From NCBI GenBank assembly GCA_043800535.1, contig JAZDMV010000023.1, forward strand, positions 111,186 through 175,185: a DNA stretch of 64,000 nt. The letters run 5' to 3'. The stretch's first letter is position 1. Every line of letters begins with the position of its first letter. Positions 1-44,802 of the stretch are shown piece after piece. The notes under the pieces are model-generated. The model was not told the DNA's origin. It saw only the letters and a program-made list of their open reading frames with translations, and did not search any database. Origin of the DNA: a bacterium. GTDB taxonomy: Bacteria; Patescibacteriota; Minisyncoccia; Portnoybacterales; GWB1-42-6. The position numbers and the translations under genes are program-made.

Positions 1-450
1 TTTTATAAAACTTGTCAGCACAATTAAAAACTTCGCTTTCTGCCAAATCTTCCTGTGAGATTTTTTGATTTTTTCTGGTAGAGAATGGACTTCCAGTGCA
101 AAATCCTCGAAAAATAAACCAGCTGCCCGCTCGCGCGTGTATAAAATATCATAACTTTTGCCTGACAAATAAATTCTTGCCGCGATCAAAAAACTGGCTA
201 ACCTGATCCAGAAATTAAAACGGCCGGCACTGCCGGGATTCAGATCCAGACAAAACAACTGCGTTATTTTAAAATTATCTTTTACGCCGTAATGTGCAAA
301 AAAATCTTCTTTTAAATTTGATGACCGCCGGGGAACCACCAGCTCAACCTCCAGCCCGTTTGCGCCAAACGCCTCGCACATCTTCATTATCTGAATTTCG
401 TGAGCCCAGTTTGCCGGCAAACCGATATTGGCTAAATAGATTAGTTTCAT
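1..450 (-). CDS. Glycosyltransferase family 4 (N-terminal ~150 aa only; the gene continues past the window start)
   Basis: Minus-strand ATG at 450-448 overlaps the gmd stop as ATGA. The translation MKLIYLANIGLPANWAHEIQIMKMCEAFGANGLEVELVVP has the N-terminal GT4 fold signature. The ORF runs open to position 1. Confidence 0.55.
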   Translation of the reverse strand, partial: MKLIYLANIGLPANWAHEIQIMKMCEAFGANGLEVELVVPRRSSNLKEDFFAHYGVKDNFKITQLFCLDLNPGSAGRFNFWIRLASFLIAARIYLSGKSYDILYTRERAAGLFFEDFALEVHSLPEKIKKSHRKIWQKAKFLIVLTSFIK

Positions 451-1451
451 ATGTGCTTCAAAAATTGCTGGCTGTGTTTTAACGGTTCCCGATATTTTTC
501 CAGATCCGCCTCAACCATCATTTTGACCAGTTCCTTAAAGGTGACTTTCGGCTGCCAGCCAAGTTTTTCTCTGGCTTTTGATGGGTCACCCAAAAGATAT
601 TGCACGTCATTTGGCCGATAGAACTTTTTATCCGTCTCTACATATTGGCTCCAATCAAGACCAATACAACCAAAGGCCTCCTGGCAGAACTCTTTGACAG
701 TGTGAGATTCCCCTGTGGCAATAACATAATCATCGGCTTCTTTTTGCTGCAGCATCAACCACATTGCTTTAACATAATCGCCGGCAAATCCCCAATCCCG
801 TTTGGCCTCAAGATTCCCCAAATAGATCTTGTCGCTATAGCCCATTTTAATCCGGGCTGCTCCATCGGTGATTTTTCTGGTCACAAATTCAACCCCCCTA
901 ATGGGTGACTCATGGTTGAATAAGATGCCGGAGCAGGCAAATAGGCCGTAGCCTTTGCGATAGCTTTTGGTGACCCAGTGGGCATAGAGCTTGGCCGCCG
1001 CATACGGACTGTTTGGCTCAAAAGGTGTATTCTCGTTTTGTGGCGGCGGCGCGTCACCGAACAATTCCGAGGTTGAGGCCTGATAAAATCTTATTTTTGG
1101 ATCCAATATGCGGATAGAATCCAGGATCCTTGTGACGCCAAGACCCGTTATTTCTCCCGTGGCGATTGCTTCATCAAACGAGACGCCGACAAAGCTTTGG
1201 GCGGCCAGATTATAGATCTCATCGGGCTCACACTGCTTGATGGCGGATAAAATGGAGGTCTGGTCAAGCAAGTCCAGCGGAATGAGTTCGATGTTCTTTT
1301 TGACATCAAGATAATGCAGGCGCCAAAAATTTCTGGTGCTTGAACGCCTATAGCCGCCATAAACTTTGTATCCTTTCTCGATCAAAAATTTGGCCAGATA
1401 CGGCCCGTCCTGGCCGGTAATGCCTGTGATTAAAGCGCGTTTGTTGAACAT
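447..1451 (-). CDS. gmd: GDP-mannose 4,6-dehydratase
   Basis: Rossmann N-terminus ALITGITGQDGPYLAKFLIEKGY. YAAAKLY is the SDR YxxxK motif. Length 334 aa is typical for Gmd. Confidence 0.9.
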   Translation of the reverse strand: MFNKRALITGITGQDGPYLAKFLIEKGYKVYGGYRRSSTRNFWRLHYLDVKKNIELIPLDLLDQTSILSAIKQCEPDEIYNLAAQSFVGVSFDEAIATGEITGLGVTRILDSIRILDPKIRFYQASTSELFGDAPPPQNENTPFEPNSPYAAAKLYAHWVTKSYRKGYGLFACSGILFNHESPIRGVEFVTRKITDGAARIKMGYSDKIYLGNLEAKRDWGFAGDYVKAMWLMLQQKEADDYVIATGESHTVKEFCQEAFGCIGLDWSQYVETDKKFYRPNDVQYLLGDPSKAREKLGWQPKVTFKELVKMMVEADLEKYREPLKHSQQFLKHI

Positions 1452-1492
1452 AGTTTTTTTTAATTTTAATAATAAATTTGTCTTTTAATATT

Positions 1493-3058
1493 CTATTCCC
1501 AGCCCAAAATTTCGGGAATTTTATCTTTTATCTTTTCGTAATTGCGCTCTTTGATGATATCGTAGGCCAAATTAAAAATTTTCATCACGTCTTCTTTGCT
1601 AAAATCCTTGGTCTGAACCACCGGCATATCGGGCCTCAATCTCAGCTTATCAAGCTCAAGATTGTTGTCCAGTGCCCCCATTTCCTGGGCCATTTGGAAT
1701 GCTTTGGTGCCGGGCAATGGTTGAAAAACATAGAATCTGGCTCCATCCATGCCCGATTCAAAGGCGAATTTTAACGTTTTTATCATGGTCTGACGCGTCT
1801 CGCCCGGATAGCCAAAGATAAAAAATCCACGGGTGCGCAAGCCAACCTCTTTTGCCTGCGCAATAATTTCTTTAATTTTTTCTAGCCTCAGGTTTTTACA
1901 GATGACTTTATCCAAAAATTCCTGGTCGCCATTTTCAACGCCAAACTGCAATTCTCTCAAGCCAGCTTTATATAGATATTCAAGGGCTTCTTTGTCAAGC
2001 GAAGGGAGAAAAACGCCGCTGGGCGTGACCAAGCGGACATTATGTTTGCGTTCAATAATACCCTTGCATATCTCAATGGTCCGGGATTTTGAAACGGTAA
2101 AATTATCGTCAACGATAACGATCTCTTTGGCGCCGTGCTTAACTAAAATGTCGATTTCGTCCAAAACATTTTTTGAAGAACGTATCCGATAAGTTTCTCC
2201 CCAAACCGCGTGAATGGCACAAAAGGTGCATCGGTTAGGGCAGCCGCGGCTGGTAATAATAAAACCGTGGGGCATAAAAAGCGCTTTTGGCTTGTTTCTG
2301 TGCCGCCAATTGAAAAATCTGGCAAAAATATAGCGAATTCCGGGGACAGAAAGAGACGCGTATAAAATCCAGCTTTTTACAAGCTTCTTTAAATTAAAAT
2401 GCCTGGAATAACCATAACCGGCTGGCTTTGAATAATTATAAAGTCCAAGAGAGCCGCGATGCGGAAAAATAATTTTATCAAGGTCTGTTTGAACAGGCCG
2501 CGCCTGATTATAAATAATTTCGCCCGAACCGAGTTTACGGAAACAAATTCCTTTGACCGCTGCCAGATTATCTAAATTGTCCGCCAGGTCAACCGCCGTT
2601 TCCTCCCCTTCTCCCAAAACAATCGCGTCAAAGCTTTTGCACTCGCGCATAACCTCGGCCTTGTAAGAAGAAGGGAACGCTCCTCCGCCAAAAACGAAAA
2701 TGTCCTTGTCAGCTTCTTTTGCCAGGTCAGCTGTTTGATAAAAAGAGCTTGCCTGGGCGTAAAACATACCCGAAATCCCGATAATATCCGGCTTAAATTT
2801 TTTGACCTCTTTTGCAATGTGCCGTTTTTCGCTGCCGCAGTGAAAAAGATTTTTTTCAGGCAAAAACCGCACGTTTCTTGGATGCTCGACCAGACAGTCA
2901 TAAATTTTGACTTCGTGGCCATGAGCCAACAATGCTGACTGGATATATTGCAGGCCCAATGGTTCAAAGGGCAAAAAAACCAACTCATTTTCCTGCATTT
3001 CAAAAAAGGGCCTGACCAGCAAAATTCGGTGTTTCCCTTTTTTAAAAACATCATTCAT
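1493..3058 (-). CDS. B12-binding domain radical SAM protein (class B radical SAM, methyltransferase-like)
   Basis: N-terminal cobalamin-binding Rossmann-like region (ILLVRP...LGLQYIQSALLAHGHEV). Radical SAM cluster motif CPNRCTFC (CxxxCxxC). Confidence 0.85.
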   Translation of the reverse strand: MNDVFKKGKHRILLVRPFFEMQENELVFLPFEPLGLQYIQSALLAHGHEVKIYDCLVEHPRNVRFLPEKNLFHCGSEKRHIAKEVKKFKPDIIGISGMFYAQASSFYQTADLAKEADKDIFVFGGGAFPSSYKAEVMRECKSFDAIVLGEGEETAVDLADNLDNLAAVKGICFRKLGSGEIIYNQARPVQTDLDKIIFPHRGSLGLYNYSKPAGYGYSRHFNLKKLVKSWILYASLSVPGIRYIFARFFNWRHRNKPKALFMPHGFIITSRGCPNRCTFCAIHAVWGETYRIRSSKNVLDEIDILVKHGAKEIVIVDDNFTVSKSRTIEICKGIIERKHNVRLVTPSGVFLPSLDKEALEYLYKAGLRELQFGVENGDQEFLDKVICKNLRLEKIKEIIAQAKEVGLRTRGFFIFGYPGETRQTMIKTLKFAFESGMDGARFYVFQPLPGTKAFQMAQEMGALDNNLELDKLRLRPDMPVVQTKDFSKEDVMKIFNLAYDIIKERNYEKIKDKIPEILGWE

Positions 3059-4178
3059 CGGCTAATACACGCTTAAAATTACGGCAGATGAAACTGACTT
3101 GCTTTTCGGTCAGAAGCGTACTGCTTGGCAGACTGATACCGTGCTGATAGGCATATTCAGCATTGGGAAATTTTTGGTTCATGGCATACGGCTGAAAAGG
3201 TTTTTGCAGGTGCAGCGGCTTAAAAAACGGACGGGAGGCAACCCCTTTCTCTGAGAGCTTCTGGCGAACAGCGTCTATATCTTTATTTATTAACACACTG
3301 AAAAGCCAGCAGACGGCCTCGGCTTTTTTATCATTTGAAAGCTGAAAAGTAATGCTAGGGCAATTGGCCAGCAATTTTTCATAAAGCAATTTCATCGTCT
3401 TGCGCGCCTTAAGAAATTTCTGGAATCTTTCAAATTGAGCGCAACCAACAGCCGCTTGAAGATTCGTCATCCTGTAATTGTAGCCAACCACTTCGTGGTC
3501 ATAAACGCCCCGCGAACGCATTCCATGGTTCTTTAAAATGGCCATTTTTTCGTATAGTTCCTGGCTATCGGAAAGACAAACTCCGCCTTCGCCTGTTGTC
3601 AAAATTTTATTACCGTAAAAAGAAAAACAGCTGACTTCGCCAAAGTTGCCGACCGGTTTGCCACCAAAAAAGGCGCCGTGCGATTCAGCTGCATCTTCTA
3701 TCAAAAAGATCTTATGCGCTTTACACCAATGAACAATATAATCGTAATCGCATGGCATACCGTAAGTATCAACTGCTATCAATGCTTTAGTCCTCTTGGT
3801 CAATTTTTTATCCAATTCTTTTACGTCAAGATTCCAGTCGTTTTTATTGATATCGACAAAAACCAGCTTTGCGCCGCAATGGATGACAACCGCGGCCGGC
3901 GCGGCAAAAGTAAAAACTGGCACAATGACTTCGTCCCCTGGCCCAATACCCAGGGCCAGCAGGGCCAGATGCAAAGCCGTAGTTCCGCTTGAACAGCTTA
4001 ACGCAAATTTACGCCCAAAATTTTTGGCGGCCAAAACCTCAAACCTGTCAATATATTTTCCGGCCGAAGAAACTCTGCCTTCATTTTTTATCGCATCAAT
4101 CAGATATTTTACCTCGTTGCCTGAAAGGTCCGGTGCGGCCACTGGTATTTTTTTCATATTTTTATTTGTGCTTAGCAA
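3051..4178 (-). CDS. DegT/DnrJ/EryC1/StrS family PLP-dependent sugar aminotransferase
   Basis: FSFYGNKILTTGEGGV contains the conserved PLP-lysine motif. 375 aa. Overlaps its neighbours by 8 and 17 nt. Confidence 0.85.
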   Translation of the reverse strand: MLSTNKNMKKIPVAAPDLSGNEVKYLIDAIKNEGRVSSAGKYIDRFEVLAAKNFGRKFALSCSSGTTALHLALLALGIGPGDEVIVPVFTFAAPAAVVIHCGAKLVFVDINKNDWNLDVKELDKKLTKRTKALIAVDTYGMPCDYDYIVHWCKAHKIFLIEDAAESHGAFFGGKPVGNFGEVSCFSFYGNKILTTGEGGVCLSDSQELYEKMAILKNHGMRSRGVYDHEVVGYNYRMTNLQAAVGCAQFERFQKFLKARKTMKLLYEKLLANCPSITFQLSNDKKAEAVCWLFSVLINKDIDAVRQKLSEKGVASRPFFKPLHLQKPFQPYAMNQKFPNAEYAYQHGISLPSSTLLTEKQVSFICRNFKRVLADE

Positions 4179-4989
4179 TTATCGTCATGCTTTCCAATTC
4201 TCCTTCACGCTGAATACCCCTGAATTTTCCGCTGGGGAAAATATCAATTATTGATAAACCGACCTTATTTAATATTTTTTTTATTGACCTCTCTGTAAAA
4301 TGCCAGGTATGGTCAACTAAAGATAACCAAGGTCCTTGAGCACTCATTTTAGGAATCCGAATAACAAAAATTCCGTCTTGAGCCAAAAGTGGTTTTATTT
4401 TTTTAATAAACGATGATGGATTCTGAACGTGCTCAAGAAGGCTGTACATCGCGATAACATCGTAACGACTCTTTCTCAAAGAGTTGGTAAAAGAACCTTG
4501 CGGAGGAGAAAAAACCACTTTCAGCCCTTTTTTTTGACAAATTTTTATCGCTTCTTTTGAAAATTCAACGCCATCGGTTGTCTTAAAACCTTTTTCTTTG
4601 GCCGCTATCAAGGTGTGGCCGTAAGCGCAGCCAACCTCTAAAATCGACTCTGGATTCTTTTTGTATTTTAAAATTTCTTCTACCCTTATCTTGGCGATGG
4701 CCGTTGATTTTTCGTCGCTAACCGTTAACCCATACATATCGTCCGTACCTTTAAAATAAGAGGGGTGGTTATAGAGGCTGTCCAGATATTCTGGGCCTGG
4801 CTGAGGGAAAAGGAATAATAAATCATCAGCGACACAATGCCTGATCCTGTAAGTCTCTGCGTTGATGCTGAAAATAAATCTATCCGCTGTTTTATTTTTT
4901 CCGCGACAAAGGCAACAGCGCACAAAATGGCTGTCTTGAGATTTCAGCCACGGGTATTTTAAATTTAATTGGGGAAGATTTTTTTTCAT
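4162..4989 (-). CDS. Class I SAM-dependent methyltransferase (Cys-rich N-terminus)
   Basis: SAM-binding motif I ILEVGCAYGHTL. An acidic motif follows. The N-terminus carries a CCLC...C...C cluster. Confidence 0.7.
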   Translation of the reverse strand: MKKNLPQLNLKYPWLKSQDSHFVRCCLCRGKNKTADRFIFSINAETYRIRHCVADDLLFLFPQPGPEYLDSLYNHPSYFKGTDDMYGLTVSDEKSTAIAKIRVEEILKYKKNPESILEVGCAYGHTLIAAKEKGFKTTDGVEFSKEAIKICQKKGLKVVFSPPQGSFTNSLRKSRYDVIAMYSLLEHVQNPSSFIKKIKPLLAQDGIFVIRIPKMSAQGPWLSLVDHTWHFTERSIKKILNKVGLSIIDIFPSGKFRGIQREGELESMTIIAKHK

Positions 4990-6248
4990 TTCTGATTAAG
5001 CAGCTTTAATATTTCTCCGTACAGCAAGGCCGCTGTATTTTTTATATCAAATAAGGTCTTTGCCTTCGCAATATTGTTCTCTCTGAATACTTTCCTTTCT
5101 TCATCGCTCAAATGCCTCGTTTTTTCCAAGGCGTCGGCTATAGCCTGCCTATCGCCCAAAGGCACCAGAAAGCCGTTCTTTCCGTTTTCAATCGCTTCTT
5201 TGATGCCGCCGACGTCATAAGCGACAATCGGCAAACCAATAGACATTGCTTCTTTCATCGCCATGCCCATACACTGACGAATAGTGGTAGCTGTCACGCA
5301 GAAACAATCCATTGCCGAATAAAGCCGCGCCAAAGTTTCTTCAGTTAAGCCCTGAAATATAAATAATGAATCTAAGGGAAAATTCATTTCCTTGGCGTGT
5401 TTCCACATTTCTTCTGATGACCCCATTCCGCACAAAATAATAGCCATTTCTTTTAATTTTTCTGGTGCCAATTTCAATAAGGCCTCAAAAATATGTTCAT
5501 GTCCTTTTCGCATTGTCAGGGCCCCTACTGACATAACTAAAAATTTATCGTCCGGCAAATTAAACTCCTTCCTCGCGGCTCGCTTATCATTGATCATCTG
5601 CCCGTTAAAAATATCAAAATTCACACCGCTGTAAACTATCCTTATTTTGTCTGGATTTATTGAATACTTTCTCGGACCTTCGGTGCAGTGTTCGCTCGGC
5701 GGCACAACAAGGTCAACCCCGTTTACCAAATAGTTCCATAATGCCGCTTCGTCCTTGTATTGAAGCTCTGCATAATTTTCCAAAATGACCGGCAGCTTAT
5801 GTCGTTTTGCGATTTTCAAGGCGACCAGGCTTTGCAGACCGGCAGTCTCTGTAATGATGATGTCAGGCTTGATACTTTTGATGTTCTGATCCAGATATAC
5901 GGCGCGCCCGGCACAATAAAGAAATCTGGCAAAAATAAATTCCCGAGATAATTTCAATTGTGAATATAACGCCTGAATGAATACACCCGGACCGACAAGA
6001 AAATTTTTAAGCACATACCACAATTTATCAATAATGTCCGGCGTCTTTAAAAAATCATAAAAATACTGCGCTCCTGCTTCAAGGTCTTCTTCCATCTCAT
6101 GCTTTTGCCGGATATGGATAAAAACCTGCGCGCCGTAAGTATTCCATATCTTTGCGTGCAGAAGACAGCGTTTAATAATCCCGCCATAGGGCGGTGGCAA
6201 GCTTTCTCCGTTATCGCCGGTGATCAGAATCTTCATCTGATTATGCAT
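4986..6248 (-). CDS. Glycosyltransferase family 4
   Basis: C-terminal GT-B motif MKEAMSIGLPIVAYDVGGIKEAIENGKNGFLV. 420 aa. Confidence 0.8.
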   Translation of the reverse strand: MHNQMKILITGDNGESLPPPYGGIIKRCLLHAKIWNTYGAQVFIHIRQKHEMEEDLEAGAQYFYDFLKTPDIIDKLWYVLKNFLVGPGVFIQALYSQLKLSREFIFARFLYCAGRAVYLDQNIKSIKPDIIITETAGLQSLVALKIAKRHKLPVILENYAELQYKDEAALWNYLVNGVDLVVPPSEHCTEGPRKYSINPDKIRIVYSGVNFDIFNGQMINDKRAARKEFNLPDDKFLVMSVGALTMRKGHEHIFEALLKLAPEKLKEMAIILCGMGSSEEMWKHAKEMNFPLDSLFIFQGLTEETLARLYSAMDCFCVTATTIRQCMGMAMKEAMSIGLPIVAYDVGGIKEAIENGKNGFLVPLGDRQAIADALEKTRHLSDEERKVFRENNIAKAKTLFDIKNTAALLYGEILKLLNQK

Positions 6249-6326
6249 AATTTACTGTCAATTTAAGCACTCAAATTACATCACTATATTCGCATTTTTT
6301 GAGGTTTTTGTAAAGTTTTATGGACA

Positions 6327-6369
6327 CCTAAAATAAAAGGCTCAGAACTATTTTGAATAGTCCTGAGCC
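6327..6369 (-). terminator. Rho-independent terminator downstream of the 6378-7385 gene
   Basis: Hairpin ggctcag(17-nt loop)ctgagcc. It is followed on the minus strand by ttttatttt. Confidence 0.55.
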
Positions 6370-6377
6370 AAATTTGA

Positions 6378-7385
6378 TTAAATCATTCCTGGGCCTCTCG
6401 TGACCCAAGCATGGATAGCAATAAGGGCAGAGCGCGACTCAGTTGGATTCATGAAATCGCTGTCGATCACCTCAACCGTAGCTGAAATTTCCTGAGAGGA
6501 AGCGTTGATATATCTCACCAGTTCAATAAAATTTTCCTCTCCAATATTTCCCTCACCAGGAATTAGACCCTCTCTGAACCGACAAGTTCCCTCCCGCCAG
6601 ATACCCCAGACGTCAGACATATGGATATGAGGCGTCACGTCCTGCACTTGCTTATAGACATTTACCAAATTACCTTGCGCGCTTAATGTGCCCCAGTGAC
6701 ACGTATCGAATGTCATAAGAAACCCGTTCTTTTTAACGAATCCCCTTATCTCTAAGGGATCCGCGAACAAGGGATCGTAGACCATGTCATTGGAGGAAAA
6801 GAATGTATCGCCCATAAGAGGTACTGGCATGTTCTCGATGGCCAGCCCAACTCCCTGCTTTTTGACCCGCGAAAGGTTTCCAGCGACTTCCGAAAGAAGC
6901 TGGAGTCTATCACGATCAGTCAACCCCTCCATTTCTGCATGGCTCATAAGTGTCTCGGCGTGGACGTTTACCAAACTAGCGCCAATCCTGCTCGCGAGCG
7001 CGAAAACCTCATTGAGGATTTCCACGCTTTCAGGTCGCGAAAGATTGGTCGGCGCAGCCTCGTAATTATCACGGGTCACAGGCGCGTGGACCACGATCCG
7101 TTGCAGAGAAATCTCCTTTCTTGCTGCCTCCAGATTTTTGATGGTGTCATCCGCTTTTGAAACGGTGACAAAATTATCCAACGGCCCCACGATCTCAAGA
7201 CCCGTTGAGACACATAAATGCCGGTATCTCTCAATATGATCAAAGTCTCGAAGGCCCTTCAAAAGATCTACCCTTGTCGCCACATCCTTCTCCTTACTCG
7301 CCCTACAGGGCGTGCAGATAACGATCATCTCCAGTCCCTCCTTTTTTGCTATGGATTTTAGGTACAATCCAATATTATATACCAC
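6378..7385 (-). CDS. Sugar phosphate isomerase/epimerase, xylose-isomerase-like TIM barrel family
   Basis: Metal-ligand style motifs VVHAPV, VNVHAE, LAIENMP and FDTCHWG. The true start may be the internal MIVICTP. Confidence 0.55.
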   Translation of the reverse strand: MVYNIGLYLKSIAKKEGLEMIVICTPCRASKEKDVATRVDLLKGLRDFDHIERYRHLCVSTGLEIVGPLDNFVTVSKADDTIKNLEAARKEISLQRIVVHAPVTRDNYEAAPTNLSRPESVEILNEVFALASRIGASLVNVHAETLMSHAEMEGLTDRDRLQLLSEVAGNLSRVKKQGVGLAIENMPVPLMGDTFFSSNDMVYDPLFADPLEIRGFVKKNGFLMTFDTCHWGTLSAQGNLVNVYKQVQDVTPHIHMSDVWGIWREGTCRFREGLIPGEGNIGEENFIELVRYINASSQEISATVEVIDSDFMNPTESRSALIAIHAWVTRGPGMI

Positions 7386-7498
7386 CGATGACTAAAAGTC
7401 AAGAGCAAACAAAAAAGCCCATATACCTTAAAAATACACGGGCTTTCATATTTTTTATCAGTTGTCTTATCTTTGCTGTCCTAATTACGGAACTATCC

Positions 7499-8899
7499 TC
7501 ATATCCTCTGATAAACTTTGTAAACGCCAAATTCTTTGAGTAGGGCGTATTTTTTATCCAAAACATCCTGATATTGCACGGCATATTCGTCGCCTTTCCA
7601 CAAAACTATAAGTTCGGGCAATTTGTCATCTGAAAACGAAAGCGGATTCTCCCCTATCTGGCGGACGTCGGAAATGACGTGATATTTTTTTTCGGGCGGG
7701 ATAAACGCCGCCACCTGAGAAAGATTAATGATGCCGACGCTCTGGGCGGAGCGGCTGTTCACGAATGAAGACACCTCCTGGGGCCTGGTTGAATAAGCGA
7801 TATCTGAAAAAAAGAACAGCTGGACAACCTGAACTGAAATTAAAATGCCGCAAAAGACCAGTGCCTGCCACTTCTTAAAGATAAGTAAAAAAGAGGGGTA
7901 AATCAAAATAAGCGTTAAAAGCTCCAGGGCAAAAAGATATCTGAACCAGCCGGGGCTGCGCAAAAAATAAATAATAACAAGCGCGCCATAAATGCAGAAA
8001 AATAAAAAGGATTTCTGCCATATTTCCGGGATCGCTTTCCTGTGTCTGACAAAAGCGAAAACAGCCGCAAAGATCAAAAGAGAAAAATAGATCAGCGTGG
8101 TTTGCGAAAAGAACCCGGAAACATTATTCAAAAAATTAGTCGTCAGCGAAGGTGAATCAATGAACGGATTCTGATAAAGCTTATAAATATTTATCCAGCC
8201 GCCCACGGAAAAGAAATCCGGAATGATGAAAATAAAATATAAAAGCACGGGTAAAAAGCCGCCTGCCGCAAATTTAACTATTTTAAAAATTATATCCTTG
8301 CGAAAAAATAAAACATAGATTAAAAAAACCAGGGGTAAAGCGTGATAAATTGAGGGCTTGGCGGCCAAAGCCAGGCCGAAAAACAACCCAACCAACCAAT
8401 AATTCTCTCTTTTTATCAGATAATACAAACCCAGAAGCAAAAAGACAAAGCCCGGCACCTCTCCGGTCACGGGCCGGCCAATGCCAAAAAAAGAAGCGAA
8501 AGTGACGCATAATAATAAAGCATAAATAGCCGCCGGCTTGCCAAAAAAAGACCGCGTGACAAAATAAATCGTTGCTAGGGCGGCCAGGAGCCACAAAATC
8601 ATAAAGATCCTGGCCTGATCCCAGCCGAATCCAAAAATGGAGAAAAATCCCGCCAGAGGGACCATGGCCGGATAATTGCTTGTGACCAGAGTATAGGAAG
8701 CATTTGAAAATATCCCGGGAGCGGTTTGGATGTCCAGTTTGCCAAATAAAGAAAAATTTTGCGCCGCCTCAATATTAAAAGCTTCGTCAGGCCAGATGCT
8801 TGGTTTGGTCGCCAAGTTGTTCAGAGAAAAAACGACAACAAAAGCAAAAACCATTGTCAGTATCAGGACCTCATAATTTTTTTTAAAAAAATCAGCCAT
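7499..8899 (-). CDS. Polytopic membrane glycosyltransferase, GT-C fold (ArnT/PMT, GT39/GT83-like)
   Basis: More than 10 predicted TM helices. DE-type motif IWPDEAF lies in the first loop. AAKPSIYHALPL resembles the ArnT KPPL region. Confidence 0.5.
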   Translation of the reverse strand: MADFFKKNYEVLILTMVFAFVVVFSLNNLATKPSIWPDEAFNIEAAQNFSLFGKLDIQTAPGIFSNASYTLVTSNYPAMVPLAGFFSIFGFGWDQARIFMILWLLAALATIYFVTRSFFGKPAAIYALLLCVTFASFFGIGRPVTGEVPGFVFLLLGLYYLIKRENYWLVGLFFGLALAAKPSIYHALPLVFLIYVLFFRKDIIFKIVKFAAGGFLPVLLYFIFIIPDFFSVGGWINIYKLYQNPFIDSPSLTTNFLNNVSGFFSQTTLIYFSLLIFAAVFAFVRHRKAIPEIWQKSFLFFCIYGALVIIYFLRSPGWFRYLFALELLTLILIYPSFLLIFKKWQALVFCGILISVQVVQLFFFSDIAYSTRPQEVSSFVNSRSAQSVGIINLSQVAAFIPPEKKYHVISDVRQIGENPLSFSDDKLPELIVLWKGDEYAVQYQDVLDKKYALLKEFGVYKVYQRI

Positions 8900-9554
8900 T
8901 TTCTTTTAAAAACAAAATTGAACAATACCAAGAAAAGTTAATCGGCAGCCATCTGGGAAAAATTATCATTTTTTCAACTCTAAAATGTTTTTTTGCCGCC
9001 TCAATGATGTCTTTGTGGCTAGAAGGATGCATCGCTCTGGGGTTCCATTCTTTTTTGCTCCAGCCAAATGTCTGGAAAAAAAAATCCGTTATCATATTGC
9101 GCACGGGAAAGGAAATCACTGCTTTACCGCTTTTTTGCATAACCCTTTTGACTTCAAGAAACGCCTTATCGAGATCATTCGGAAAAATGTGCTCAAAAAT
9201 GCTAACTGCCACCACTCCGTCAAAAAACTCATCCTGATATGGTAATTCAAGAACCGAGCCCTGCAAAAGTTCCGCTTTGACCCCCATTTTTGCAAGCATC
9301 GCCTCAACATCAGGAATTTTTTCGTGGATATCTATTCCAAAAAGATTTTGAGAGCGGCGCGACAATTCCGGCAGAAGGATACCGCTACCAAAGCCGATCT
9401 CCAGCAAGTTTTTATAACTCTTGCCCAAAAGATCCAAGGTGTTCATCAGCCGCTTTTTAAAAACGTAGCCGACCAGAGGAACATAATGATAAAAAATCGG
9501 GTCTCCGGCGTCCGTTTTTAACATTTTTCTCCGCGGCGGCAATAGCATTTTCAT
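8892..9554 (-). CDS. Class I SAM-dependent methyltransferase
   Basis: Motif I LLEIGFGSGILL. Post-I acidic residue in FGIDIHE. Confidence 0.7.
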   Translation of the reverse strand: MKMLLPPRRKMLKTDAGDPIFYHYVPLVGYVFKKRLMNTLDLLGKSYKNLLEIGFGSGILLPELSRRSQNLFGIDIHEKIPDVEAMLAKMGVKAELLQGSVLELPYQDEFFDGVVAVSIFEHIFPNDLDKAFLEVKRVMQKSGKAVISFPVRNMITDFFFQTFGWSKKEWNPRAMHPSSHKDIIEAAKKHFRVEKMIIFPRWLPINFSWYCSILFLKENG

Positions 9555-9561
9555 AATATAT

Positions 9562-10299
9562 TTAGTATCGGGCTCTGATTATCAACGAACCAGAGGCCTC
9601 TCTAAGCACAGGGATTTTTTCCAAAGCCAATCCCAGTCCTGAAACTATTTTTATTAAAAACTGAGGGACAATAGGATGTAAAAAATCATAAGGCAGAACT
9701 TCAACATCTGAAAAATCTTGCCGTCTCAAAAATTTTGCCAACTTCCAGCGTAAAAAAGCTGTCTCTTCGGGCGAATTGAGCAACCAGCGGCCAAAAAATC
9801 TGATATTTCTTTCCAAAAAGATCTCCGGGTTCAGCATATTGGGCTCGGAAAAAAAGATTTTTCCTCCTCTTTTGAGCACCCGCCTTATCTCACGAAAAGT
9901 TTTTTCCATATCAATATGGTGCAAGATCGAATTCCCGACTACCGCATCAAAGGATTGGTCCAAAAAAGGCAGTCCACCCACGTCAGCTACGGCAAAAACA
10001 ACATTGGGGAGCGCCAGGGTTTTTTCCGCGAATCTGATTGATTCGCCTGAAATATCAATGGCCGCAATCTGGGCTGATGGCAGAACAGGGGGAAGATATT
10101 TGGTCAGGTCGCCTATGCCGCAGCCTATTTCCAATATCTTGAGCTGCCCGCCGCTCCCAAGATAATCCGCGATTAAGTTTGCCCGACGAATTAATCTCTG
10201 CTTGCCAGCTTCGGTCTGATGCCCCCACCAGCTTATTCCCTTATTTGTAACTAAATAGTCAAAATGCTCTGCTTCTTTAATTTTTGAATGTTCAATCAT
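9562..10299 (-). CDS. Class I SAM-dependent methyltransferase
   Basis: Motif I ILEIGCGIGDLT. AIDISGESI follows. Motif region DAVVGNSILHH. Confidence 0.75.
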   Translation of the reverse strand: MIEHSKIKEAEHFDYLVTNKGISWWGHQTEAGKQRLIRRANLIADYLGSGGQLKILEIGCGIGDLTKYLPPVLPSAQIAAIDISGESIRFAEKTLALPNVVFAVADVGGLPFLDQSFDAVVGNSILHHIDMEKTFREIRRVLKRGGKIFFSEPNMLNPEIFLERNIRFFGRWLLNSPEETAFLRWKLAKFLRRQDFSDVEVLPYDFLHPIVPQFLIKIVSGLGLALEKIPVLREASGSLIIRARY

Positions 10300-10315
10300 A
10301 AATTATTAATGTCTC

Positions 10316-10687
10316 TTATGGCTTTGTCAATAAAAAGATCCCGCCGATGATCAGGGCCACTCCTAAAATCTGCGCAAAATTAAGACTTTCTTTAAAAATG
10401 ACAGAAGAGGCAATAACGATCGCAATCAAATTTAAGCTGGCTGTAATGGGGTATATAATATTTAAGTTAAGCCGGGAAAGAGTTAAAAGCCACGTTACAA
10501 AACCAAAAACCAAAAGAGCTAATCCTCCCAAAATATAGAAGTTCTTGAAAATTAACAAAAAGGCATTCCATAAATTGGCGAACGATATATCCATCGCCCC
10601 TTGGACTGCCATCCCTTTTTTCAAAAGCAGCTCCGCAGCGGCCAAAAATATAATGTTTGCGGCGACTAGAACATATAATGGTATCAT
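10316..10687 (-). CDS. Small 4-TM SMR/EamA-like membrane protein (ArnE/ArnF-like candidate lipid-linked sugar flippase subunit)
   Basis: 123 aa with four hydrophobic helices. Its size and topology match ArnE/ArnF. It sits between a radical SAM gene and methyltransferase genes. Confidence 0.5.
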   Translation of the reverse strand: MIPLYVLVAANIIFLAAAELLLKKGMAVQGAMDISFANLWNAFLLIFKNFYILGGLALLVFGFVTWLLTLSRLNLNIIYPITASLNLIAIVIASSVIFKESLNFAQILGVALIIGGIFLLTKP

Positions 10688-10695
10688 GATTTGGT

Positions 10696-12099
10696 TTAAT
10701 TATTGCTTAATTTAATAAATCTTAACAAGGCCAGAAGCGATCTAATATCCCGCTTTAGCTCGTCCCAGTTCCTTAATCTCATCAAACGTCGCAGAACAAG
10801 CTTTGGCCGGAAAAAGAATTTTTTATTAGCTAGACGGTAGTAATATTGCAGCTTCTCCCGGCTAAGCCCGGGCAGTTCCAGGACGGCATTTGATAAATTA
10901 TAATCATCCCAGTTAAAACTTTTGATGCATCCTCTTTCTTTTGCCCATTCAAAAAGATAGGTTCCGGGAAATGGAATGGCAACATTAAATTGGGCAATAT
11001 CAAGGTCCAGTTTCAAGGCAAAATCAATTGTTCTTTTTACGGTCTCTTCCGTTTCTCCCTGGTTGCCGAACATAAAAGACGCTCTTGTTTCTATGCCTAT
11101 TTTCCTTGCTGTCTTGATTATTTTTTCCACCCTTTCAAGAGAGATCTTTTTGTTTATAGCTTTTAGGATCTCCTCATCGCCCGACTCGACCCCGAATAAT
11201 ATCTGATAGCAGCCGGCTTTTTTCATTAATTTCAGAAGATCTTCGTCAACATAATCAACCCTGGTGATACAGGACCAGCTGATGTCTATTTTCTCATCAA
11301 TGAGCAGATTGCAAAACTCAACTACAACATCCTTAAAAAGAGTAAAGGTATCGTCCACTATTGATATTCCTTTTATGCCGTAATCCCGCTGCAGCGTTTT
11401 GATCTCATCCACAATATTCCTGGCCGATCTTTTCCTGAGCACGCCCCGGAAACAGCGATAACAAAAGGTACATCTTCCCGGGCAGCCCCTGGTGGCAAAA
11501 ATTGTCATGGCTGGCAATTTTTTGTAATTGCCGGGCGCCGGATAATATTTTTTTATCGGCAGCAAATGGTAGGCAGGATGAGGAATATCGTCCAGGTTTT
11601 TGATCAGAGGCCTCAATTCGTTTCTAATGGTGCGGCCGTTTTCCTTGTAGCATATGCCAAGGATCTCCTTTGGAGATTTTCCTGCCACTATTTCTTTTAT
11701 CGTTTCCTCTCCCTCGTCTATCACCACAAAGTCCACATACGAATGAGATATCACTTCTTCGGGCATAATCGAAGGATGCACGCCTCCCATGACAATTTTG
11801 GCGCTGGGAAATTCTTTTTTTGCAATTTTTGCAATTCTCAACGCATTATTGATCAGGGGGGTGGTGGCGGTCAGGCCAATAAAATCCAAACTATCATATC
11901 TTTTTAAAACCTGGTTCATATCATTGACCGTGTAATGTTCGGCCGAACAGTCAAGATAAAAAACTTTGTGATCCTCTTTTTCCAAGACAGCCGCTATTAA
12001 AGCCAGTCCCAAACTTGGCCAGCAGCCGGCAATTTGCTTCCATAAATTCCTGTCCTCCCCTATGACCCAGGGCGGATTTATCAATAATATCTTTTTCAT
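10696..12099 (-). CDS. B12-binding domain radical SAM protein (paralog of 18962-20383)
   Basis: KKILLINPPWVIGEDRNLWKQIAGCWPSLGLALIAAVLE. CxxxCxxC motif GCPGRCTFC. The likely start is MKKILL at 12099 (the six-frame ORF extends to 12144). Confidence 0.85.
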   Translation of the reverse strand: MKKILLINPPWVIGEDRNLWKQIAGCWPSLGLALIAAVLEKEDHKVFYLDCSAEHYTVNDMNQVLKRYDSLDFIGLTATTPLINNALRIAKIAKKEFPSAKIVMGGVHPSIMPEEVISHSYVDFVVIDEGEETIKEIVAGKSPKEILGICYKENGRTIRNELRPLIKNLDDIPHPAYHLLPIKKYYPAPGNYKKLPAMTIFATRGCPGRCTFCYRCFRGVLRKRSARNIVDEIKTLQRDYGIKGISIVDDTFTLFKDVVVEFCNLLIDEKIDISWSCITRVDYVDEDLLKLMKKAGCYQILFGVESGDEEILKAINKKISLERVEKIIKTARKIGIETRASFMFGNQGETEETVKRTIDFALKLDLDIAQFNVAIPFPGTYLFEWAKERGCIKSFNWDDYNLSNAVLELPGLSREKLQYYYRLANKKFFFRPKLVLRRLMRLRNWDELKRDIRSLLALLRFIKLSNN

Positions 12100-12119
12100 T
12101 TTAACCAAGTTTCTGAATG

Positions 12120-12776
12120 TTATATCCACTTGAACATCTTCCAAAAAATTTTCAACCCATCCTTGAAAGCGTTTACCCGCGAAACATCGGCATACCGCGC
12201 TTTTTCAAAACAAGGCACTTCACCGAACTTATAGCCGGCTTTTTTGGCTTTGGCTAAAAATTCAATGCATAAAGAAAAATCATCGGCCTTCAGATCCAAA
12301 GAGTTAAAAACTTCTTTTTTTGCCGCTACAAAAAAATACAAACTGTCAGAAACCTTTGTGCCGTAAAAAAGATTTGTCAAAAAAGTGAATATTTTATTGC
12401 CTATGCTCCGGATGAAAGTGTCGTCTTCGGTACCTGCGCCTGGCATATAACGGGAGCCCATGGCAATATCGTATCCCTCCGCCAACTTGGCCACCAACCT
12501 TGGGATGTCCTTGGGATTTTGAGAATAATCAGCATCCAGAGTCACAACAATATCGCCGGACGCATTTTTGAAACCATGCCGATAGCCGTCGCCAAATCCT
12601 TTTCCCGGCTGGACCAAAACCCGGCACCCAAGAGATTCTGCGATTTGGGCTGTTCTGTCTTTGGAATGACCGTCAACCACCAATATCTCATCCACCGAAT
12701 CTCTGGGAATATTTTTAATGGTCTGGGCAATACATTTTTCTTCGTTCAAGGCCGCAATTAGGGCTGTGATTTTCAT
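12120..12776 (-). CDS. Glycosyltransferase family 2, polyprenyl-phosphate sugar synthase-like (DPM1/ArnC/GtrB-like)
   Basis: ITALIAALNEEKCIAQTI...VVDGHSKDRT...TLDADYSQNP carries the DxD-type GT-A signature. The short 218-aa form is typical of lipid-phosphate GT2 enzymes. Confidence 0.8.
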   Translation of the reverse strand: MKITALIAALNEEKCIAQTIKNIPRDSVDEILVVDGHSKDRTAQIAESLGCRVLVQPGKGFGDGYRHGFKNASGDIVVTLDADYSQNPKDIPRLVAKLAEGYDIAMGSRYMPGAGTEDDTFIRSIGNKIFTFLTNLFYGTKVSDSLYFFVAAKKEVFNSLDLKADDFSLCIEFLAKAKKAGYKFGEVPCFEKARYADVSRVNAFKDGLKIFWKMFKWI

Positions 12777-13852
12777 AGATAGAAGTTCTTTATTTTATTA
12801 CAAATTAATTTTACCTGATTTTCGGTCAAAGAAACAGAGGACGGCAGCCAAAGGCCGGTTTTCGCGATTTTTTCGGCTATCGGGTAGCGGCCTGGCTTTT
12901 TATAGGCGGGCTGGCTGTGAAGCGCCGGATATATCGGCCGGGAACCTATCTGCTCGTCTTTTAAAAAAGCGATTAATTTTTTCCGGTCAGGCACGAAAAT
13001 ATCCGCAAACCAGGGCGTTGTCTGTTTTAGATCCGTCCCAATGAATTTTATCTGCTTTACGCCGGCCAAAAGCTTTCTATATAAAGCAAATATTTTTTTC
13101 TTTTTGGTCATACGCGCTTTTATTTTTTTCATCTGCGCCACGCCAAAAACCGCCTGCAGATCGGTAAATTTAAAATTCCAGCCGACCTCTTCATAAAAAT
13201 CTGCCCCGCCTTGCAGGCGGCCAAAATCTTTAATCCGTTTAATTTTTTCAAAGATTTTTACGTCGTTTGTCACAAGCGCCCCGCCCTGGCCGGTTGTTAT
13301 GATCTTTGGCGCGCTGAAAGAAAAACTACCGATAACTCCAAAAGTGCCCAGGTGCCGTCCGCGATAAAAAGACCCCAACGACTGAGCCGCGTCCTCAATG
13401 AGATAAACGTGCTTTTTTGAACAAAGCTTTTTTAATTTCGCCAGTTCTCCCGCCCGTCCGTTCAAAGAAACATGCATCACCGCTTTTGTCTTTTTGTTTA
13501 TGGCCTCCGTAACCTTTTCAACGTCAAGGCACAAACTTTTTTCTTCAATATCAACAAAAACCGGTTTGGCGCCCGCCAGAATGACCGCATTAGGAGTGGC
13601 AGCCATTGTGATGTCTGGCACAATGACCTCGTCGCCTGAACCAACGCCCAAAGCACGAAGCGCGACAAATAAGCTGACTGTACCATTGGAAACAACCGAA
13701 CAATACCTAGCGCCACAAAAACGCGCAATCATTTCTTCAAATTCGCGCGTTTTTTTAAATTCCATCAGCCAGCCGCCGGAATTTAAATAATCGCTGACTG
13801 CTTTTATTTCTTCCCGGCCGTAGGATGGCTCAGTCTGGTGAATAAACTTCAT
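12773..13852 (-). CDS. DegT/DnrJ/EryC1/StrS family sugar aminotransferase
   Basis: FSFSAPKIITTGQGGALV is the PLP-Lys motif. 359 aa. ATGA overlap with the GT2 gene. Confidence 0.85.
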   Translation of the reverse strand: MKFIHQTEPSYGREEIKAVSDYLNSGGWLMEFKKTREFEEMIARFCGARYCSVVSNGTVSLFVALRALGVGSGDEVIVPDITMAATPNAVILAGAKPVFVDIEEKSLCLDVEKVTEAINKKTKAVMHVSLNGRAGELAKLKKLCSKKHVYLIEDAAQSLGSFYRGRHLGTFGVIGSFSFSAPKIITTGQGGALVTNDVKIFEKIKRIKDFGRLQGGADFYEEVGWNFKFTDLQAVFGVAQMKKIKARMTKKKKIFALYRKLLAGVKQIKFIGTDLKQTTPWFADIFVPDRKKLIAFLKDEQIGSRPIYPALHSQPAYKKPGRYPIAEKIAKTGLWLPSSVSLTENQVKLICNKIKNFYL

Positions 13853-13895
13853 ATGAAATCTTATAGAAAACTAAGCAGCTATGCCGCTCTTATAA

Positions 13896-14282
13896 TTAAA
13901 TCAAAATTTTATCTTCTATAAAAGGGCCATTTTTCGTCTCAACCATTTCTGCGTCTTCCAGGACATGGATCCCATAACCGCCATGCATCAATACAAAAAA
14001 ATCTCCACCAGATAAATAAATGAATTTTAAAAACTTTTTGTCGGGACCGTAGAGATCAAGTTTTATCCTTCCCTTTTTAACCATCAAAAATTCTTGGAGA
14101 CAATCAGTGGTTCTTTTTCTTGGCTTATGCATATGGGCTTTCAAATAAGCACCATTTTTATGCCGCAAGGTCACCACCTGCAGCGGTTCTTTTCCGTCGG
14201 TCAATGGAATAGACCCTTTTGGCAACGCCTTAACCCGAAAACCAATAAGTTTTTTTTTGTAAAATATTTTTTCCATTTTTTC
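13896..14282 (-). CDS. Cupin-fold WxcM/FdtA-like protein (putative NDP-4-keto-6-deoxyhexose 3,4-ketoisomerase)
   Basis: The HxH...E...G...H pattern (KAHMHKP...QEFLMV...GGDFFVLMHGGYGIHVLEDAEMV) resembles FdtA. The start is taken at the internal MEKIFYKK to avoid overlap with the gmd paralog. Confidence 0.45.
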   Translation of the reverse strand, partial: EKMEKIFYKKKLIGFRVKALPKGSIPLTDGKEPLQVVTLRHKNGAYLKAHMHKPRKRTTDCLQEFLMVKKGRIKLDLYGPDKKFLKFIYLSGGDFFVLMHGGYGIHVLEDAEMVETKNGPFIEDKILI

Positions 14283-14289
14283 AATCACC

Positions 14290-35315: not shown

Positions 35316-35343
35316 TGGCTTGCTTATTTGTTCGTTATTTTAT

Positions 35344-35372
35344 ATTCTAAATTGAGAAGGGCTAAAAGTCAA
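35344..35372 (-). promoter_or_regulatory. Sigma70-like promoter for the long minus-strand glycan operon
   Basis: Minus strand reads TTGACT, a 17-nt spacer, then TAGAAT. It lies about 25 nt upstream of the 35315 start codon. Confidence 0.4.
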
Positions 35373-35375
35373 TTT

Positions 35376-44652: not shown

Positions 44653-44802
44653 ATTTTTGATAATTATTAATTTTGTTTAGAACAAGTATCAAATTGCTTT
44701 AATTAAAATGAAATAACTCCTTATCGATCAAAAAACGGGATTGCTTCGTCGTCCCGCACTGTGCGGGGCTCCTCGCAATGACATGCTTTATAACTTAATC
44801 TC

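Follow-up and report, generated by a model that had tools for sequence, protein, structure and literature searches.

A surface-glycan locus of 36 kb in the MAG of an uncultured, ultra-small bacterium of the CPR/Patescibacteria type contains a conserved cassette in which genes for a GDP-mannose 4,6-dehydratase, a sugar aminotransferase, a methyltransferase and two glycosyltransferases are found together with one for a class B radical SAM enzyme (rSAM). This raises the question of which sugar the cassette makes, and whether the rSAM is a step of its synthesis or an addition to it. In the window, the whole stretch of 64,000 nucleotides that was analysed, the best explanation is an operon of two modules, a perosamine-type pathway and a portable rSAM tailoring module, a reading given about an even chance of being right. 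The operon product is very probably a methylated GDP-perosamine-like amino sugar destined for a surface glycan.

Organization of the operon

The genes all lie on the minus strand and are transcribed in the order GT4-A, MT275, DegT2, rSAM, Gmd2 and GT4-B. The first one, GT4-A (4986..6248), encodes a 420-aa GT4 glycosyltransferase with the Pfam domains of the GT-B fold, Glycos_transf_1 (PF00534, 1.5e-28) and Glyco_transf_4 (PF13439, 6.9e-9). It overlaps by 4 bp with MT275 (4162..4989), a class I SAM methyltransferase of the Methyltransf_23 family with a zinc-ribbon-like N-terminal domain. DegT2 (3051..4178), a predicted PLP sugar 4-aminotransferase of the GDP-perosamine synthase type (DegT_DnrJ_EryC1, 2.4e-107), follows either with a 17 bp overlap from a TTG start or after a spacing of 4 nt from the ATG at 4157, the latter being the probable true start. 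DegT2 shares 8 bp with the rSAM gene (1493..3058), which is separated by 41 bp from Gmd2 (447..1451; GDP_Man_Dehyd, E 2.7e-127). Finally, the stop codon of Gmd2 and the ATG of GT4-B form an ATGA overlap; this second GT4, recognized on reading the sequence, is cut by the window end after its N-terminal 150 aa (1..450). The five-gene set and GT4-B are one real operon that runs on the minus strand from 6248 down past position 1. The original prediction had placed the five genes and named their domains correctly, as judged from open reading frames and Pfam, and their adjacency stood, but they had been listed in the reverse of the direction of transcription.

Upstream, the operon is bounded by a terminator-like hairpin with a 14-bp stem and a T-run (6369..6339, minus strand), located between the cassette and a xylose-isomerase-like TIM-barrel gene (6378..7385, minus strand; AP_endonuc_2, 2.8e-15). 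The latter lies between hairpins, and a promoter-like site is present at 7402..7374. It is a separate transcription unit, and its product had no match in NCBIfam and no sequence match in the PDB. An ortholog (303 bits) occupies the matching position upstream of GT4-A in L082/L099, the only other such locus, and is missing there in the related loci L001, L078 and L079. The TIM barrel had been put forward as a possible further epimerisation step; it is kept here as a possible accessory only.

The GDP-sugar core and its methyltransferase

Gmd2 scores above the equivalog cutoff of TIGR01472 by a narrow margin (425.5 vs 415 bits), the next-best NCBIfam model being a dTDP-glucose dehydratase at 112. 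The protein contains GITGQDG at 10-16, STSE at 126-129 and YAAAK at 150-154 (Y150xxxK154), which we take to be the SDR cofactor motif and, for the last two, the catalytic Thr/Glu and YxxxK of Gmd enzymes. It is 52% identical to Gmd1 (14290-15357) and is, as had been proposed, a true second paralog. From its family membership, Gmd2 would convert GDP-mannose into GDP-4-keto-6-deoxy-D-mannose.

In the same way, DegT2 finds its best PDB matches in perosamine synthetase (3bn1 and 3dr4, E 6e-82, with the alignment beginning at M8). The scores against 3bn1, 3dr4 and 3dr7 range from 276 to 279 bits over residues 8-370, and matches beyond the perosamine synthases begin at 195 bits, about 80 bits lower. 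The PLP Schiff-base lysine K191, within FSFYGNK (YGNK188-191), aligns with FSFFGNK of 3bn1, and its presence speaks for an aminotransferase and against a ColD-type dehydratase. DegT2 and the other DegT of the window (12773-13852) share 36% identity. DegT2 reaches no NCBIfam equivalog for Per, the best model being that of the LegC family (313.8 vs a cutoff of 420). Its assignment as a GDP-perosamine-type aminotransferase is well supported by these comparisons, and the predicted substrate, GDP-4-keto-6-deoxymannose, rests on the presence of Gmd2 in the same operon. Transamination at C4 would yield a GDP-perosamine-type sugar, and GT4-A and GT4-B may then transfer this sugar, its neighbour or both to a lipid-linked glycan. 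The earlier proposal of an amino sugar derived from GDP-4-keto-6-deoxymannose, transferred by a GT4 in the context of a cell-surface glycan, is in line with the Gmd equivalog and with a DegT nearest to the Caulobacter GDP-perosamine synthase.

MT275 was expected to methylate the amine. Its Cys-rich N-terminus, pointed out in the original prediction, is borne out by the residues C25, C28, C52 and D55, which are invariant among 15 family members and define a CxxC...CxxD motif. According to two structure methods and to profile comparison, the best matches of its fold are the sugar C3-methyltransferases TcaB9, KijD1 and MtmC, and the structural alignment with TcaB9 spans 226 residues, putative zinc-binding N-terminal domain included. 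Nevertheless, Pfam found no match to PF08421 in the 15 family members, even at E<=10, and the C-terminal domain PF08484 is missing from MT275 and its relatives, the protein stopping at residue 275 right after the methyltransferase core. An hhalign alignment of 91% probability pairs H187 and H227 with invariant His residues of the TcaB9 family, those of NNVFAH and YHEH as read in fragments; they would correspond to the active-site His of TcaB9 (H181/H225), with the numbering of the latter deduced from the motif and the His of LEH being generic to Methyltransf_23. The same comparison gave no clear counterparts of Tyr222 and Glu224 of TcaB9.

The similarity of MT275 to the sugar N,N-dimethyltransferases DesVI/TylM1 does not exceed that to other class I methyltransferases. 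Its fold being nearest to C3-methyltransferases, C- or O-methylation is likelier than N-methylation, on modest evidence. Wider zinc-ribbon/Methyltransf_23 relatives of about 300 aa likewise contain neither PF08421 nor PF08484 and some have hydrophobic C-terminal tails, which suggests that the conserved His may serve O-methylation of membrane-bound substrates. Most likely, MT275 would methylate a carbon beside the 4-keto group before transamination, or otherwise a hydroxyl; methylation of the amine appears less likely.

The radical SAM enzyme and its genomic partners

The rSAM combines a B12-binding Rossmann domain (PF02310, 1.4e-20, residues 31-158) with a Radical_SAM core (PF04055, 2.3e-25) in which the CX3CX2C motif is intact (CPNRCTFC at 273-280); 24 orthologs all keep C273, C277 and C280. 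About 500 columns of its AF2 model (pLDDT 88.5) can be superposed on TsrM, TokK, OxsB and AprD4. Structural likeness is about equal for TsrM, MgmA, TokK, AprD4, CysS and OxsB, and identity to any solved class B member is 15-19%. Among the NCBIfam models for HpnJ, BchE, Sden_1168, AprD4, TsrM, KedN5, HpnR and PhpK, no cutoff was reached: the best sub-threshold profiles were Sden_1168, HpnJ and BchE (150, 148 and 144 bits vs 575, 578 and 481), with AprD4 at 87 vs 500 and TsrM at 52 vs 500. As judged from its sequence, the enzyme has class B architecture with putative cobalamin use and fits no named subfamily; the GenK- or TsrM-type identity looked for by profile and structure did not emerge. The B12-binding domain is found in AprD4 too, and no sequence motif reliably marks cobalamin binding. 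An insertion of 45 aa (about 218-262), specific to the orthogroup, contains 9 Lys/Arg, zero Asp/Glu and many aromatics, as might be expected of an element that binds phosphate or lies at a membrane interface.

Not all class B rSAMs are methylases, exceptions being for example AprD4, HpnJ, OxsB and BchE. The enzyme could likewise transform the aminosugar by radical chemistry without methylating it, all methyl groups being supplied by class I methyltransferases. Candidate reactions, with HpnJ, AprD4 and OxsB as models, are rearrangement, dehydration, deamination, epimerisation and ring contraction. AprD4 is the top match both by TM-score (0.67/0.76) and by PDB sequence search, and two of the best-scoring profiles below cutoff are those of HpnJ and BchE. 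Furthermore, the motif GGxH(P/A)(S/T), conserved in five paralogs among the six rSAM genes of the window, reads GGGAFPS in this rSAM, and HpnJ has been proposed in the literature to act on a lipid-linked free aminosugar. The genomic record is also consistent with this reading, as strings of DegT-(GT2)-rSAM recur in related loci and a separate class I methyltransferase accompanies the rSAM nearly always. On the contrary, all these matches are far under family cutoffs and nearly equal to those with the methylases TsrM, TokK and CysS, and the majority of characterised class B enzymes are methylases, as is generally known and as reviewed, so that a non-methylating enzyme is considered rather doubtful. 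Clustering with BchE or HpnP, which had been named as speaking against a sugar role, does not decide the matter, since according to a review HpnJ, MoeK5 and GenK, which all act on sugars or sugar-derived groups, share the main sequence-similarity network cluster with BchE and SD1168 (Sden_1168).

The neighbourhood of the gene is informative on the place of the rSAM. The metagenomic contig L001 contains the six genes in identical order, plus one extra methyltransferase between rSAM and Gmd, at 69-81% protein identity. The five complete genes score 590, 445, 681, 997 and 654 bits, and the partial GT4-B scores 194 bits, or 199 bits when compared with the 377-aa GT4 behind Gmd, which argues that the arrangement is not due to chance. 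Beyond this contig, the cassette splits into two modules. Module A is made of GT4-A, MT275, the Per-like DegT and Gmd, and module B of the rSAM, a methyltransferase of about 210 aa and GT4-B. In L079, module A and GT4-B occur without rSAM, as GT4(431)-MT282-DegT-Gmd-GT4(372). In L078, DegT is divergent from GT4(429)-MT282 and GT4-B is present, Gmd and rSAM being absent.

Across about 25 related loci, in tallies that are small and counted without phylogeny correction, the MT275 loci have the Per-like DegT (5/5) and mostly a Gmd2-type gene (4/5). In the rSAM orthogroup, the methyltransferase of about 210 aa is found in 12 of the 14 loci, and so are GT4-B orthologs, which also occur in the rSAM-less L078 and L079; of the 11 full loci, no more than 7 contain a Gmd-type gene and 4 a Per-like DegT. 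Module B is often found without DegT or MT275, and the usual methyltransferase partner of the rSAM is absent from the window. GT4-A orthologs (250-590 bits) are located directly upstream of MT275 in L001, L078 and L079 and of DegT in L082. Adjacency of DegT and rSAM recurs in the window, L001, L082 and the archaeal L012, and L014 has Gmd-DegT-GT4-rSAM, which argues for a real functional link of the rSAM to the aminosugar.

These loci bear on the linear pathway of the original prediction, in which the rSAM C-modifies GDP-4-keto-6-deoxymannose, DegT transaminates it, MT275 N-methylates it and GT4 transfers it. Orthologs of DegT2 and MT275 persist without rSAM in L079 and L078, so that the rSAM is dispensable for the DegT substrate. 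DegT2 is missing from most loci of the rSAM orthogroup, where the near-constant partners are the methyltransferase of about 210 aa and GT4-B rather than DegT or Gmd, and the best match of MT275 is with C3-methyltransferases. A linear order is therefore unlikely, and the rSAM looks more like a portable addition than a step that the pathway requires.

In the two-module operon, the rSAM, nested between DegT2 and Gmd2, would belong to the portable tailoring module with the methyltransferase of about 210 aa and GT4-B. It would most likely direct 5'-deoxyadenosyl radical chemistry, probably a cobalamin-mediated methyl transfer, at an unactivated carbon of a 6-deoxy/4-amino-sugar residue, either on the nucleotide sugar after transamination or on the lipid-linked glycan. 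That it targets a lipid (polyprenyl carrier or membrane lipid) and is merely co-regulated with the operon, as could be suggested by the B12-type domains of many lipid-modifying rSAMs in the literature (e.g. GrsA/B, Gmm and hopanoid methylases), a sub-threshold ladderane-lipid profile, the basic/aromatic insertion with its suggestion of membrane association and the LPG_synthase_TM genes of related loci, is very improbable given that the gene overlaps or directly adjoins GT4 and DegT genes in many loci and, in bacteria as well as in an archaeon, recurs in linkage with sugar-nucleotide genes.

Implications and comparison with known systems

In the literature searched, the class B rSAMs that have been characterised all belong to cofactor, antibiotic, RiPP or lipid pathways, and none was found assigned to a GDP-sugar or a primary surface glycan. 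We tentatively raise the possibility that this orthogroup, partnered by the methyltransferase of about 210 aa and GT4-B, is the first class B tailoring enzyme of a primary surface glycan, acting on an unactivated carbon of a GDP-derived 6-deoxy or 4-amino sugar and yielding, together with MT275, a doubly modified branched GDP-aminosugar. If true, MT275 would be a shortened C-methyltransferase of the TcaB9 kind with a GDP-4-keto sugar as its substrate, and the product would be of a type so far known only from antibiotic and mycobacterial glycolipid chemistry. CPR bacteria and related archaea have many class B rSAM genes in glycan loci, and the six paralogous rSAMs would then mark a widespread, unexplored radical system of glycan decoration in these organisms, whose surface chemistry probably governs host-cell attachment. 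The cassette is compact, conserved and testable, its sugar-nucleotide half is well anchored, L079 provides a natural minus-rSAM comparator and the methyltransferase gains a specific alternative assignment, C- rather than N-methylation. Should it be no more than a further perosamine pathway with decorations, the gain would be confined to better annotation.

The GDP-perosamine pathway of Caulobacter crescentus, E. coli O157 and Vibrio cholerae O1 relies on Gmd and Per/RfbE. The window likewise has a TIGR01472 Gmd, and the Caulobacter perosamine synthetases are the best solved relatives of DegT2 (278.7 bits, 363 residues aligned, PLP lysine in common). By contrast, the operon lacks any transferase for an N-acetyl, N-formyl or other N-acyl group, it has a zinc-ribbon methyltransferase and a class B rSAM inserted among its genes, and the host is a CPR-type MAG.

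MT275 appears to share the N-terminal and SAM-binding domains of TcaB9, KijD1 and MtmC, which methylate NDP-4-keto-6-deoxyhexoses at C3. It differs from this type in its length (275 vs about 410 aa), in the complete loss of the PF08484 domain, in its fourth metal ligand (Asp instead of Cys) and in its substrate, which would be a GDP-sugar and not a dTDP-sugar. In parallel, the rSAM has the B12-type Rossmann N-terminus, the CX3CX2C barrel and the helical C-terminus of GenK, MoeK5, AprD4 and HpnJ and, like them, is set among sugar-modifying genes, but in a primary cell-surface glycan locus instead of an antibiotic or hopanoid cluster.

Kansosamine, from the LOS of Mycobacterium kansasii, and sibirosamine are 3-C-methyl-4-amino-4,6-dideoxyhexoses. 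They are made by other organisms and, as far as their pathways are known, on other nucleotide carriers; N-acyl kansosamine is on record as a unique sugar of a surface glycolipid. Both belong to the product class expected when a C3-methyltransferase and then a 4-aminotransferase act on a 4-keto-6-deoxyhexose, the class to which the predicted product of the window would belong.

The operon and its probable sugar-nucleotide route

The operon at the start of the window is a perosamine-type nucleotide-sugar operon that carries an acquired, uncharacterised module with a class B radical SAM enzyme (rSAM) as well as an unusual truncated TcaB9-like methyltransferase. On the minus strand, it comprises a GT4 glycosyltransferase (GT4-A, 6248..4986), a 275-residue class I methyltransferase (MT275, 4989..4162), a DegT aminotransferase (DegT2, 4178..3051), the rSAM with its B12-binding domain (3058..1493) and Gmd (Gmd2, 1451..447), followed by a second GT4 (GT4-B) that starts with an ATG overlapping the Gmd stop codon and is truncated at the end of the window. 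The reading frames of the original prediction were present at exactly these coordinates, all on this strand, and every domain call was confirmed by Pfam. Neighbouring coding regions overlap or almost touch and a strong hairpin with a T-run (6369..6339) sets them off from the upstream TIM-barrel gene, so that the cassette forms a discrete operon. Chance reading frames or a chance juxtaposition were ruled out by the overlapping start and stop codons and by the synteny of L001, a related locus (rSAM 81% identical) that holds the six genes in window order with an extra methyltransferase of about 210 residues between rSAM and Gmd. A literature search retrieved nothing relevant on B12-rSAMs together with CPR, GDP-mannose, O-antigen or perosamine, nothing relevant on a GDP-perosamine C-methyltransferase, and no paper describing a class B rSAM module or a truncated TcaB9-like methyltransferase in a perosamine-type operon.

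The sugar-nucleotide half of the operon is well anchored. Gmd2 scores above the curated TIGR01472 cutoff (425.5 vs 415), contains the expected GxxGxxG, T/S-x-E and YxxxK motifs and shares 52% identity with the other Gmd of the window (Gmd1, 14290-15357). In the same way, DegT2 has its closest solved relatives in the Caulobacter perosamine synthetases 3bn1 and 3dr4 (E 6e-82), the alignment spanning M8 to residue 370 and conserving the Schiff-base lysine, and the best match beyond the perosamine-synthase group is about 80 bits weaker. Because of these relatives and of a Gmd in the same operon, the natural reading of the sequences would be a route from GDP-mannose through GDP-4-keto-6-deoxymannose to a perosamine-type GDP-4-amino-4,6-dideoxyhexose. 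The proposed core of the pathway, in which GDP-4-keto-6-deoxymannose is converted into an aminosugar, was supported. No acyl or formyl transferase was found in the operon.

The upstream gene encodes a TIM-barrel protein with only a modest AP_endonuc_2 match and no match among NCBIfam profiles or PDB sequences. On the minus strand it is bracketed by long perfect hairpins with T-runs at 7413-7447 (16-bp stem) and 6339-6369 (14-bp stem), which points to a transcription unit of its own. An 11/12 match to a sigma-70-like promoter (7374-7402) overlaps its annotated GTG start, and the real start may therefore be a downstream ATG. An ortholog (303 bits) takes the equivalent place in L082/L099 and is absent from L001, L078 and L079. 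The protein, to which a further epimerisation had tentatively been ascribed, is at most an optional accessory. In L082, an extra and apparently frameshifted copy of the rSAM orthogroup (4770-6320) lies upstream of the TIM-barrel gene.

Two modules in related loci

About 25 related loci from other genomes and metagenomic contigs were compared, orthologs being mapped by phmmer with queries drawn from the window proteins and their neighbours. A first module consists of GT4-A, MT275, a Per-like DegT and Gmd. The MT275 family is very small (16 clusters among 5.8 billion proteins); it is accompanied by a Per-like DegT in all five of its loci and by a Gmd2-type gene in four. GT4-A lies directly upstream of it in four of the five, a different GT4 (GT4-C) taking this place in L077. 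The rSAM is absent from two of these loci: L079 reads GT4-A, methyltransferase, DegT, Gmd and GT4-B, matching the window cassette except for the rSAM, and L078 reads GT4-A, methyltransferase, DegT and GT4-B, with no Gmd within the flanks fetched.

The second module consists of the rSAM, the methyltransferase of about 210 residues and GT4-B. At an identity of at least 48%, the rSAM orthogroup comprises 14 distinct loci. Its members were found in MAGs of Zambryskibacteria, Portnoybacteria and Saccharibacteria, so that the window most likely belongs to a member of the CPR/Patescibacteria. An orthologous small methyltransferase is present in 12 of the 14, almost always directly downstream, and GT4-B is also present in 12. 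Among the 11 loci with full flanks, a Gmd-type gene occurs within 10 kb in only seven and a Per-like DegT in only four. Tandem rSAM copies (rSAM-rSAM-small methyltransferase-GT4-B) were observed in the metagenomic contigs L085, L086, L087 and L088. No ortholog of the small methyltransferase exists anywhere in the window; the only other rSAM locus without it is L077, which also has MT275. These locus contents, namely the module partners and the rSAM-less L079 and L078, mark the rSAM as a portable tailoring gene that is dispensable for making the DegT substrate. It sits inside the perosamine module in one subclade (window, L001 and L082). An in-line C-modification by the rSAM, as first proposed, is not supported, since L079 and L078 keep DegT and the methyltransferase without it.

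The association of the rSAM with aminosugar genes is no accident: in the window, L001 and L082 the rSAM is immediately preceded by DegT, as it is in L012, a locus of a Candidatus Methanoperedens MAG with an rSAM of only 41% identity. There, a Per-like DegT, rSAM, methyltransferase and GT4 occupy 8911-13562, and a Gmd2-type gene (18564-19613) is located 7 kb from the DegT-rSAM group. As L012 is archaeal, the pairing crosses the domain boundary. In addition, the order Gmd-DegT-GT4-rSAM was found in L014 (Wolfebacteria, rSAM 35% identical). L080 and L081, from the wider rSAM clade, adjoin Wzx flippases, with Gmd and DegT absent nearby. Elsewhere in L001 (15071-19990), split transketolase genes (Transketolase_N, Transket_pyr) lie intermixed with an SDR and three methyltransferases, an arrangement that resembles a module for a two-carbon branched-chain sugar.

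MT275 and the rSAM enzyme

The AF2 model of MT275 (pLDDT 89) has as its top 18 Foldseek PDB matches the NDP-4-keto-sugar C3-methyltransferases MtmC, KijD1 and TcaB9 (TMq 0.62-0.71, whole query aligned), the remaining methyltransferases reaching a TMq of 0.54 or less. With the family profile, TcaB9 was a better match (2.6e-6) than the sugar N,N-dimethyltransferases (about 1e-3). By hhalign, MT275 was aligned at 91% probability with fragments of PF08484-containing proteins of the TcaB9 family, full-length proteins not being among the homologs retrieved. The invariant residues of MT275 are C25-x2-C28, C52-x2-D55, E186-H187 and D226-H227-x-W-H-F; in the fragment alignment, H187 and H227 match the invariant histidines of NNVFAH and YHEH, and by motif position they correspond to TcaB9 H181 and H225, mutated in the listed TcaB9 PDB entries. 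Unlike the TcaB9 family, MT275 lacks the C-terminal PF08484 domain. PF08421 gave no match even at E<=10, and PDB searches with sub-sequences gave no N-terminal matches and did not have TcaB9 among the matches listed. Wider profile relatives are zinc-ribbon/Methyltransf_23 proteins of about 300 residues with no assigned function, some with hydrophobic tails.

It is concluded that MT275 probably relies on a catalytic core of the TcaB9 type. Its single most likely role would, tentatively, be to methylate a carbon adjacent to the 4-keto group. O-methylation comes second and is unlikely, and the N-methylation of the original prediction, slightly less likely again, is not supported, as fold and profile favour the C3-methyltransferases. 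A lipid or small-molecule methyltransferase was rejected, the matches to CMAS, UbiG and MetW being weak, sub-threshold and limited to a generic Rossmann core. Should the methyl group go to C3, a 3-C-methyl-perosamine-type sugar would result, which is chemically akin to kansosamine. In the literature, kansosamine is described as a unique sugar of LOS.

In the rSAM, the CX3CX2C motif (C273, C277, C280) is invariant among orthologs and the AF2 model (pLDDT 88.5) predicts a class B layout. This model fits TsrM, MgmA, TokK, AprD4, CysS and OxsB about equally (TM 0.57-0.67, 15-19% identity). No NCBIfam cutoff was reached, the best scores being 150 bits for Sden_1168, 148 for HpnJ and 144 for BchE vs 481-578. 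NCBIfam profiles, PDB sequence search and Foldseek do not discriminate its subfamily, all giving low, near-equal scores, and by these profile and structure comparisons the enzyme is of neither GenK nor TsrM type. Closeness to BchE or HpnJ is no argument against a sugar substrate, since a review places HpnJ in one main SSN cluster with MoeK5, Fom3, GenK and SD1168. HpnJ itself has been proposed to contract the ring of lipid-linked glucosamine. The rSAM shares 25-33% identity with its five window paralogs, all of which lack an orthogroup-specific insertion of about 45 residues (about 218-262). This insertion is rich in aromatics, contains nine Lys/Arg, lacks acidic residues and is predicted to be helical. 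Tentatively, its composition suggests a membrane-interface or phosphate-binding element, which would suit a lipid-linked or nucleotide-linked sugar as substrate.

The surrounding glycan locus

Over its first 36 kb, the window contains nearly only minus-strand glycan genes, including six B12-type rSAMs, two Gmd, two DegT, three small GT2s, four GT-C (PMT_2) proteins and many class I methyltransferases and GT4s. The six rSAM paralogs lie within 31 kb (1493-30695), and each type has counterparts at other CPR loci. A UDP-glucose/GDP-mannose dehydrogenase frame of only 267 residues (34512-35315), seemingly N-terminally truncated, abuts a GT4 (35301-36521) that is the sole plus-strand gene of the locus; this junction may be a rearrangement scar. 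Further along, two Wzy_C-TPR fusion proteins are encoded at 42.4-47.0 kb (42397-47046). A 1157-residue frame without Pfam match (47835-51308) lies within a GC-rich patch (0.517 vs about 0.43 elsewhere), and a 1272-residue LTD/fn3 protein (37193-41011) is encoded near it.

An Arn-like lipid-linked aminosugar module lies on the minus strand at 7499-15357. It contains Gmd1, a 150-residue reading frame, the second DegT (DegT1, 12773-13852), a 218-residue GT2, the second B12-rSAM (HpnJ profile 269 bits, under cutoff), a 123-residue ArnE/F-like SMR protein, two methyltransferases and a GT-C (PMT_2) protein. Its DegT-GT2-rSAM(-rSAM) string was also found in L007, L011, L089 and L077. With an rSAM placed between a polyprenyl-P glycosyltransferase and a flippase, this module recalls HpnI/HpnK/HpnJ.
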